The position numbers and the translations under genes were made by a program. Shown one piece after another: positions 28,748 to 33,121 of a stretch of DNA of 64,000 nt; positions within the stretch are counted from its first letter, which is position 1; the number at the start of each line of letters is the position of its first letter. The DNA is taken from positions 11,658-75,657 of the IMG/VR virus record IMGVR_UViG_3300025425_000009; one strand, given 5' to 3'. Under the pieces are notes generated by a model. That model saw only the letters and a list, made by a program, of their open reading frames with translations, did no database searches and was not told the DNA's origin. Source of the DNA: a virus.

Positions 28748-28899
28748 TGACAGTCTGCCTGTCTTAGACGGATCTCCTCGCCGTTGAACAGAGTGACAAC
28801 AGCCGTGCCTTCTGTAGGTGCGTCTTCAAAACACTGAGTATAAATCGACAATGGTGTGTAACAGCATCGTTTTTATACACTAACGAATATGACCCACCT

Positions 28900-29874
28900 A
28901 TGCTAATTGGACACACAGATGAAACTTCATACAGCCTTTACCCAAGTCAACACCCATGGGCAAGAGAGCTATACGACCAAGCAGTAGCGAACACGTGGTT
29001 CCCCCACGAAATTCCTTTGAAAGAGGATCTTATTGATTTTGAAAATATGACAGTTGACGAGCGTCATGCAATAGAGTTCATAATGTCTTTCTTCAACCCA
29101 GCAGAACTCATTGTAAACAGAACACTTGCTCTAGGAGTATACCCATACCTTACAGCACCTGAGTGTCATCTGTACCTTGCAAAACAAATGTGGGAAGAAG
29201 CGAACCACTGCGTTTCATTCGAATATGTTCTTGAAACATTTCCGTTTGATCGTGAAAAGATCTATGGCCACCACAACAACGTACCAGAAATGATAGCTAA
29301 AGAAGCTTACCTGAAACGTTATCTAGACCCTGTGATTGGTGACGGAGTTGACATCACCACAGTTGAAGGAAAGCAGGCGTTCATACGTAACCTTGTTGCA
29401 ATCAACATAGTTACAGAAGGTATCTGGTTTTACTCAGGATTCATGGTAATGCTCTCATTCCGTCAGCGAAACAAGCTTCGAAACTTTGGATCAATGATTA
29501 ACTGGGTACTTCGAGATGAAAGTCTTCACCTCAAGTTTGGAATGACACTCATTCTTACAGTGCTTGATGAAAACAAGGACATTGTGACAGACGAGTTTGC
29601 AGAAGAAATTCAAGCAATGATTGTGGAAGGAGTGGAACTTGAAACTGCGTACAACAAGGTACTGTTTCCAAACGGTATTCTAGGACTCAATGCAGACTAT
29701 GTAAACCAGTACGTAAAGTATGTAGCGGATCGTAGATTCGAAGAACTCGGGTTTGAACCACACTACAACGTGACTAACCCTGCAAAGTGGATGACTACCT
29801 CTACAGATGTGTATGAACTAGTTAACTTCTTTGAACAGCAAAATACCTCGTATGAGGTAAACGCTAAGGCGTAA
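28900..29874 (+). CDS. nrdB: Ribonucleotide reductase class I beta subunit
   Basis: W.P.EIPL..D, EEANH, EGIWFYSGF, RDESLH, NFFE. Confidence 0.95.
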   Translation: MLIGHTDETSYSLYPSQHPWARELYDQAVANTWFPHEIPLKEDLIDFENMTVDERHAIEFIMSFFNPAELIVNRTLALGVYPYLTAPECHLYLAKQMWEEANHCVSFEYVLETFPFDREKIYGHHNNVPEMIAKEAYLKRYLDPVIGDGVDITTVEGKQAFIRNLVAINIVTEGIWFYSGFMVMLSFRQRNKLRNFGSMINWVLRDESLHLKFGMTLILTVLDENKDIVTDEFAEEIQAMIVEGVELETAYNKVLFPNGILGLNADYVNQYVKYVADRRFEELGFEPHYNVTNPAKWMTTSTDVYELVNFFEQQNTSYEVNAKA

Positions 29875-29906
29875 CGGTTCACTGGCAACTGACAGGTTGC
29901 CGACAT

Positions 29907-29980
29907 GGAGGCATAGTGTAACGGACAACATGTAGGTCTTCGAAACCTGAGATCCTGGTTCGAATCCAGGTGCCTCCACC
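29907..29980 (+). tRNA. tRNA-Arg(TCG)
   Basis: anticodon loop CTTCGAA. Confidence 0.9.
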
Positions 29981-30025
29981 TGACGTAATGTTATAATAAC
30001 TATCTTAGCAAGTAACTTATTCTAT

Positions 30026-30166
30026 ATGCCAGAAGAACTTACACAGGAACAAATTGAGCAGAACAAGGAGGAATCTCTTAGAAATAGAGCAGCCGCTGAC
30101 AAGCAGGCTGAGGAGTTCGGTCATAACGATCCCAGCACAGACTTTGTTTGTGACAGCTGCCAATAG
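30026..30166 (+). CDS. 46-aa acidic peptide ending CDSCQ (NrdA C-terminal tail-like); absent from the ORF track
   Basis: hand translation; TGTTATAAT promoter at 29989-29997. Confidence 0.75.
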   Translation: MPEELTQEQIEQNKEESLRNRAAADKQAEEFGHNDPSTDFVCDSCQ

Positions 30167-30176
30167 GCAGTTACCT

Positions 30177-30260
30177 GCTAGCATGGCATGAGTGGTCAAT
30201 GGCACTGGGCTGTAAACTCAGCGACTTCGGTCTACGCAGGTTCGAATCCTGCTGCTAGCA
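30177..30260 (+). tRNA. tRNA-Tyr(GTA)
   Basis: anticodon loop CTGTAAA, variable arm. Confidence 0.92.
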
Positions 30261-30266
30261 CAACAT

Positions 30267-32893: not shown

Positions 32894-33121
32894 ATGATAA
32901 CAATATACACAACGCCAACATGCAAGTACTCAGACAAAGTCAGAAGGCTGTTGGAGGATGCAGGCAAGGACTACAAGATATGTAACGTGCTCATGGATCC
33001 TGCAGCGAGGGACCACTTAATAGACAAAACAGGTGAGGTGTTTGCACCAACCATAGAAGTAGACGGACAGTTCTTAGTAGGCTTCATTAAGTCAGATGTA
33101 CAACGCATGCTAAATGTGTAA
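32894..33121 (+). CDS. Glutaredoxin/NrdH-like redoxin (CxxS)
   Basis: IYTTPTCKYS, APTIEVDG..LVGF. Confidence 0.88.
   Translation: MITIYTTPTCKYSDKVRRLLEDAGKDYKICNVLMDPAARDHLIDKTGEVFAPTIEVDGQFLVGFIKSDVQRMLNV

Follow-up and report, generated by a model that had tools for sequence, protein, structure and literature searches.

In class I ribonucleotide reductases (RNRs), the C-terminal tail of the catalytic alpha subunit swings into the active site and reduces the disulfide left there by each turnover, and the tail itself is then re-reduced by thioredoxin or glutaredoxin. Tails of this kind, fused to alpha, include that of Escherichia coli NrdA with C754 and C759, and a CxxC pair occurs in eukaryotic R1 and in most bacterial NrdA proteins. 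In yeast, Sml1, a small disordered RNR inhibitor, is said to compete with the C-terminal domain of R1. To our knowledge, a separately encoded electron-accepting RNR module is known only for class II, namely NrdJb. The subject of this analysis is an open reading frame (ORF) of 46 codons, located downstream of nrdB in a salt-lake phage, which encodes a free-standing peptide resembling the redox tail of a class I alpha subunit. The stretch of DNA analysed (the window) comprises 64,000 nucleotides, bases 11658-75657 of the 75,657-bp IMG/VR record IMGVR_UViG_3300025425_000009, a record rated 100% complete by CheckV; the coordinates of the phage features given below are positions in the window.

Like the fused alpha tails, the 46-aa peptide carries a CxxC pair one residue before the stop, and it is homologous to the tails of Patescibacteria-type NrdA proteins; unlike them, it is a separate polypeptide, encoded in a genome that lacks a PF02867 barrel. 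In the split class II enzyme NrdJa/NrdJb of Pseudomonas aeruginosa the electron-accepting C-terminal module is likewise separately encoded (PMC4520616, PMC5704485). However, NrdJb folds as a Cys-rich domain, 150-220 aa in size and bearing a zinc finger, and its gene adjoins that of its own catalytic partner (PMC5704485), whereas the phage peptide is of the class I type, is 46 aa long with only two cysteines, consists of one helix and a flexible end, and has no catalytic partner in its genome. The fusion of glutaredoxin (Grx) with NrdB in Facklamia ignava (PMC6187632) ties a redoxin to an RNR component, as do the fusions of tails with Grx and thioredoxin (Trx) described below, but in F. ignava the redoxin is joined to beta and alpha keeps its tail, whereas here the tail itself is free or fused. 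The R2c protein of Chlamydia trachomatis (1SYY) aligns with the phage NrdB end to end (E 1.6e-67) and has the same Phe and Glu, although Chlamydia encodes its own NrdA and the phage does not. Sml1 is also a small, largely unstructured protein at the interface of tail and alpha, but it is an inhibitor without a Cys-pair tail. The RNR-family surveys consulted, including one in which a C-terminal CxxC was present in 1737 of 2022 class I sequences (PMC9531940), mention only fused tails and the NrdJa/NrdJb split, and our full-text literature searches returned no description of stand-alone class I tail micropeptides. A free class I tail micropeptide (22-66 aa), found mostly in phages without RNR genes, appears to be undescribed in searchable papers.

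The initial annotation of the window had noticed that the peptide looks like the redox tail of alpha, and this likeness proved to be homology, beyond mere similarity. A profile hidden Markov model (HMM) was built from the last 50 aa of 137 distinct cellular Patescibacteria-type NrdA proteins; among the 3573 six-frame ORFs of the phage its sole match was the 46-aa ORF (24.7 bits, E 9.6e-6), the next-best ORF having an E-value of 18. The peptide ends in NDPSTDFVCDSCQ, its last residues being VCDSCQ-stop, with two cysteines within the last ~10 residues. Judged by sequence, the peptide is truly homologous to the CxxC redox tail at the C-terminus of class I RNR alpha. Single-sequence AlphaFold2 modelling predicted a charged helix at residues 7-31 (predicted local distance difference test score, pLDDT, 85-93), followed by a flexible end (pLDDT 59-69 for the tail). 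The N-terminal part of the peptide contains ELTQEQI, and its helix motif LTQEQI, 42 residues from the end, resembles LTKEQIMAKL, which some Patescibacterial NrdAs carry 39-44 residues from their ends; in some Saccharibacteria-type NrdAs a helix with L[ST]KE[EQ]IMAKL is located at the same distance; this resemblance of the N-terminal helices is only suggestive. The peptide shares its register and its end (stand-alone, DPx5C[DE]xCQ-stop) with a family of viral peptides described below. It lacks a GY motif as well as Pro-[Val/Ile] ahead of DP, and by sequence it is closer to cellular tails than to either the short-form or the long-form viral group.

No RNR alpha was found in the 75,657-bp genome with PF02867, with the full-length Patescibacterial NrdA P0001 or with two class-II-type queries, so that the absence of nrdA, previously stated for the window, holds across the whole record; fragments of nrdA elsewhere in the genome were not detected either (PF02867 and the full-length NrdA query). 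The beta subunit is present. At E-values of about 1e-67, the PDB structures closest to the phage NrdB are the class Ic R2 protein 6Y2N and three structures of Chlamydia trachomatis R2c (1SYY, 4D8F, 2ANI). When NrdB is aligned with 1SYY, a Glu occupies the position of E89, the first metal ligand, and a Phe that of F127, the site of the radical Tyr, while the two ExxH motifs are retained, as is the Tyr at the C-terminus, in a ferritin-like R2 fold (PF00268). Comparison with the R2c structures thus confirmed both residues on which a class Ic assignment had been suggested, and on this sequence evidence the phage NrdB is class Ic. As had been claimed, the phage holds a beta subunit, a tail and a glutaredoxin, without an alpha.

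Since the phage has no catalytic subunit, it probably supplies spare parts to the enzyme of its host. The 46-aa ORF would be a free-standing copy of the last ~46 residues of a Patescibacteria-type NrdA, comprising an acidic helix and a flexible ...DPx5CxxCQ end. With its class Ic beta, the detached tail and a glutaredoxin-fold protein, the phage might keep the host NrdA turning over during infection, the peptide acting as a mobile dithiol between the redoxin and the active site of alpha. We infer that the peptide binds host NrdA, that it transfers electrons and that the monothiol glutaredoxin is its partner. Whether the peptide is such a trans-acting electron shuttle for host NrdA, working with phage beta and redoxin, is in our judgement evenly balanced.

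The features of the phage that bear on this proposal are the following.

28900-29874, plus strand: nrdB, class Ic (R2c-type) RNR beta subunit, 324 aa (PF00268, E 9.9e-75; PDB alignment)
29907-29980, plus strand: tRNA-Arg(tcg), between nrdB and the 46-aa ORF (ARAGORN; Rfam tRNA, 66.7 bits)
29989-29997, plus strand: extended -10 box TGTTATAAT, a possible promoter element, visible directly in the sequence
30012-30019, plus strand: GTAACTTA, the usual gene-start context of the phage, which replaces a Shine-Dalgarno site (motif enrichment)
30026-30166, plus strand: ORF of the 46-aa detached NrdA-tail peptide, ATG to TAG (ORF and tail HMM)
30128-30163, plus strand: flexible tail ending in DPSTDFVCDSCQ-stop, residues 35-46 of the 46-aa ORF
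30177-30261, plus strand: tRNA-Tyr(gta), 10 nt past the peptide stop (ARAGORN; Rfam)
32894-33121, plus strand: glutaredoxin-fold protein, 75 aa, with the monothiol site CKYS, a candidate redox partner (PF00462, E 5.5e-16)

On the plus strand, the frame that starts with ATG (30026) and closes with TAG (30166) encodes the 46 aa originally reported; from stop to stop it spans 60 codons. The distance from nrdB, put at 150 nt in the initial annotation, is 151 nt, but this gap contains tRNA-Arg(tcg), which had gone unmentioned. As tRNA-Tyr begins only 10 nt beyond the stop, the ORF fills the 196-nt spacer between the two tRNA genes within a cluster of 20 tRNAs. The promoter ascribed to the ORF stands only in part: the extended -10 box is perfect, but a sigma-70 scan called no promoter at 29989-29997 because a -35 element is absent. 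Shine-Dalgarno sites were found in none of the 22 phage genes checked. Upstream of long ORFs, [ACG]TAAC occurs within 25 nt in 10 of 21 cases, with 1.6 expected at random, and TAACTTA in 3 of 21, with 0.08 expected; the 46-aa ORF is preceded by both, in the element at 30012-30019. Across the phage, CTAAC/GTAAC(TTA) is strongly enriched 8-20 nt before the start codons of most plus-strand genes (e.g. 28880-28899). From its sequence, the 46-aa ORF is presumably translated. A 109-aa gene call in the protein collection (P0235, 30026-30355), which reads the ORF through its TAG and through tRNA-Tyr, is almost certainly spurious, and a structured RNA in the tRNA spacer was considered and rejected (fold z -1.39, no Rfam family match). 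No close DNA relatives were found in GenBank phages, and a word-index protein search with the peptide at near lengths returned no match.

Small ORFs ending in CxxCQ, for which the initial annotation had recommended a search, turned out to be a real and conserved kind of gene in phages. A phage clade in IMG/VR, with NrdB proteins 59-67% identical to that of the window, carries a tail ORF of 25-28 codons, ending in ..GYxxPxDPM[DE]xxxC[DE][SG]CQ-stop, which is located 5-8 nt upstream of nrdB, 1 kb off or downstream of it. Synonymous divergence (pS) over the last 20 codons of this ORF is 0.77 against a nonsynonymous divergence (pN) of 0.24, and third-position variability is 0.43 versus 0.21 and 0.14, which indicates purifying selection on the protein in this clade. 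Four of the five larger records of the clade that were searched, including two with terminal repeats, have no alpha of any kind, and one has a class-II-like alpha. The 102-kb genome of a related phage (G004) combines a class Ic nrdB and a tail micropeptide with a monomeric class-II-like RNR of 703 aa (L033:442-2553; NPCAEQ, ending with a CxxxxC pair). A 120-kb phage with terminal repeats carries a free-standing 310-aa ORF (L012:5043-5975) between the tail micropeptide and nrdB; it has Hint-like N-terminal residues and a LAGLIDADG-like motif and looks like an intein turned stand-alone endonuclease.

The distribution of the motif is much wider than this clade. A DNA pattern scan gave at least 117 viral loci, nearly all of them tiny ORFs; among the loci listed there are 87 distinct peptides of 22-45 aa, and across the family the stand-alone micropeptides span 22-66 aa. 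The neighbours of short-form ORFs are lysis and packaging genes. For example, in Pontimonas phage phiPsal1 and Clavibacter phage CMP1 an unannotated tail ORF directly follows the holin gene, and in Pseudanabaena phage Pan2 the tail ORF is listed as a hypothetical protein. Within 50 peptide-bearing viral records, RNR alpha was found in one and NrdB in three. A profile of 78 peptides, searched against 1.84 billion representative proteins, matched at least 559 clusters at E <= 1e-3; the best 150 of these 559 are all 25-151 aa long and were nearly all matched at the C-terminal end. Long proteins matched by the profile were only class I NrdA (ATP-cone, PF00317 and PF02867) or redoxin fusions. The best long NrdA matches came from Micrococcales (Cellulomonas, Demequina), with ends of the type ..[VI][DG]GVACPVDPMERLQCESCQ-stop, and these ends match viral peptides (L284, L289, L309) over ~22 residues. 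No family model for the tail peptides exists in Pfam, PHROGs or NCBIfam, the PDB contains no match to their profile, and a word-index search with a short-form peptide at longer lengths found no match. A 28-aa tail micropeptide from a metagenome-assembled genome (MAG) of Microbacteriaceae (P0013; NCBI HAA79333.1) bears the name 'ribonucleotide-diphosphate reductase subunit beta', apparently a mis-annotation.

Detached tails are also linked to redoxins, a link supported by both gene fusion and gene overlap. The tail is fused to the C-terminus of 95-aa glutaredoxins with CAPC or CPPC sites (one cluster with n=73; viral example L201), and Cys-less NrdH-like proteins bear it as well; in L275 (1285-1767, minus strand) it is fused to a thioredoxin (PF00085, CSNC). 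Examples of fusions are P0211, P0205-P0221, P0180, P0160, L201 and L275. The long-form viral peptides are 47-66 aa in length and consist of a helix followed by ..DPxDxxxCEGCQ, and in L232 and L215 the gene of such a peptide overlaps a glutaredoxin gene. PF00462 was present in 5 of 5 records with a longer or CEGCQ-type peptide versus 0 of 45 short-form records (the same 50 peptide-bearing records). One of the five is the Grx-tail fusion L201, and two are complete genomes, in which no alpha of any kind was found. In L306 (1553-2790, minus strand) a 47-aa long-form peptide comes after a class-II-like alpha fragment (NPCGEI), which has a ..CVGGNCEV end of its own; the ATG of the peptide overlaps the alpha stop (ATGA).

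The architecture of the window, with helix and tail in the peptide and a glutaredoxin in the genome, matches that of the long-form records. By sequence, membership of the 46-aa peptide in this subfamily was not supported by a six-member HMM. The redoxin previously noted at 32894 belongs to the glutaredoxins (PF00462, E 5.5e-16), but it has CKYS in place of CxxC as its active site. It shares 27% identity with the Grx part of P0211, a Grx-tail fusion, and in nrdB-related loci it was not found as a conserved neighbour of nrdB or of the peptide.

No cysteine tail is present at the end of five cellular NrdAs (L055, L107, L145, L172 and L191). For L107, a pattern search of its MAG (G053) gave one tail motif, located on another contig. 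It is a stand-alone 37-aa ORF, ending in ..QDPAEEGICIGCE-stop, which scores 24.2 bits on the fused-tail HMM, about equal to the window peptide. No detached tail was found within the loci of L055, L145, L172 and L191, nor in the incomplete MAG G052. The presence of a tail-less NrdA together with a detached tail in G053 suggests that detachment is viable in at least one cell, on the thin ground of one MAG, a kind of assembly that can be chimeric. We propose, more tentatively and at slightly below an even chance, that phages carry a portable electron-delivery kit for host class I RNR. It would consist of a detached tail, sometimes paired or fused with Grx or Trx, mostly in carriers without RNR genes and in the present phage joined by a class Ic beta; the tail would then be a genuine trans-acting subunit, also needed by some cells with tail-less NrdA.

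The nearest relatives of the phage NrdB are cellular. It is 83% identical at the amino acid level to that of metagenome contig L114 and 77% to that of a Saccharibacteria-labelled MAG, the nearest NrdBs in MAGs of Patescibacteria/candidate phyla radiation (CPR) being 68-77% identical. A FastTree phylogeny of 186 NrdBs places it within a cellular clade as the sister of L114 (SH-like 99), distant from the IMG/VR phage clade (SH-like 100); the tail gene of the window probably arose independently. Nearly all of ~150 cellular relatives have nrdA (~830-1020 aa) directly upstream of nrdB, and these NrdAs end in ...(C)P[VI]DPxExxxC[DE][SAG]CQ-stop. As to the proposed check whether the cognate NrdA lacks its C-terminal cysteines, the closest cellular NrdAs (L114, L034 and ~140 others) keep an intact fused tail. 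The idea that the tail had been split off as a micropeptide is therefore supported only in part: the tail does stand alone, but a split from the alpha partner of this phage finds no support in these NrdAs. In a Paceibacterota MAG (L039:2864-5807) the nrdA frame is cut short by ~70 codons and the tail is read on in a different frame, a 93-codon open frame ending in ..CPTDPAELNQCDSCQ; this reflects either a frameshift introduced by sequencing or a split in the making. In runs X4-X7 an organism at ~80x depth, as compared with ~4x for the phage, carries an nrdB ~80% identical in DNA across 28899-29874, and its contigs part from the phage sequence exactly at the ends of nrdB; this salt-lake organism is a candidate host or gene donor.

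The position of the phage nrdB, nested in a cellular nrdA-nrdB clade as the sister of L114, suggests a fairly recent capture. The peptide might be a decaying remnant of a captured Patescibacteria-like nrdA-nrdB operon, the body of nrdA having been lost and 141 nt left open by chance; the ORF has no relatives that show its conservation, and its strong likeness to tails is limited to the last ~12 residues. However, the ORF is located downstream of nrdB, past a tRNA, whereas the 3' end of a decaying nrdA would remain upstream. Its ATG is preceded by the gene-start motif typical of the phage, and it has kept both cysteines, the DP and the Q-stop at its end. Searches of the genome detected no further piece of nrdA, and analogous tail-only genes are kept by selection in other phages. 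A remnant is disfavoured by the position, the start context and the absence of other nrdA debris, and we regard it as unlikely.

Several observations weigh against the proposed electron shuttle itself. The nearest nrdB neighbours (L114, L034 and L115) carry NrdA with a fused tail, and therefore the alpha of the host may not need an extra one. The glutaredoxin of the window is located 2.7 kb downstream of the 46-aa ORF, neither adjoining it nor fused to it, and is monothiol (CKYS), without a CxxC site. The ORF has no close relatives in the collections searched, and the phage's own contigs from salt-lake metagenomes (~4x deep) are identical across it, with zero variants. An HMM of 77 viral tail peptides, from which the window was excluded, placed the 46-aa ORF at the top of the 3573 ORFs, but with a merely borderline E-value of 0.01 and over the last 12 residues only, and the HMM of six viral long-form peptides misses it. 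Finally, for a class II enzyme with a separately expressed Cys-rich domain, in vitro reconstitution failed (PMC5704485).

Some of these observations would suit a competitive mimic. The peptide could occupy the partners of the tail, i.e. host thioredoxin or NrdH, or the docking or active site of NrdA, and so slow down or divert the RNR or the thiol pool of the host, much as yeast Sml1 interferes with the C-terminal domain of R1. A second tail seems redundant where most of the closely related cellular NrdAs own one, the short-form family is found mostly in phages without RNR genes, where it often closes the lysis cassette, and the CKYS glutaredoxin of the window cannot serve as a dithiol reductase. 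On the other hand, the phage invests in its own NrdB and in a hydroxymethylcytosine pathway with a high demand for dNTPs, which makes a blockade of RNR counter-intuitive. Fusions of the tail to catalytically intact Grx (CAPC) and Trx (CSNC) are better suited to electron delivery, and a detached tail in a cell with a tail-less NrdA must be productive there. Mimicry is, in our opinion, improbable. Still less probable is some other small-protein role reusing the CxxC end, for example as a metal-binding peptide, two of which would share one zinc, as a chaperone that serves the Mn/Fe cofactor of NrdB, or in regulating some other thiol enzyme: the CxxC is invariant with acidic surroundings, there are weak Pfam noise matches to zinc-finger models and short-form genes occur in non-nucleotide contexts (lysis and packaging modules), but the likeness reaches ~22 residues of Micrococcales NrdA ends, including the exact C-terminal position, every long protein matched by the peptide profile is either an NrdA or a redoxin fusion, and the family has no link to metal-handling genes.

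The alpha tail has so far been regarded as inherent in class I RNR and covalently bound to it. If true, free tails as a widespread family would add a new trans-acting component to one of the best-studied enzymes. The settings in which such tails occur are phages without RNR genes, phages with beta only, redoxin fusions and at least one cell with a tail-less NrdA, and the window adds the case of a class Ic beta with a tail and a glutaredoxin, probably of independent origin. Cultured carriers exist, namely Clavibacter phage CMP1, Pontimonas phage phiPsal1 and Pseudanabaena phage Pan2. If the electron-delivery reading is true, a gene of ~75-140 nt would give phages a cheap route into the dNTP synthesis of their hosts, and the existence of detached tails would also explain NrdA sequences that apparently lack their cysteines.

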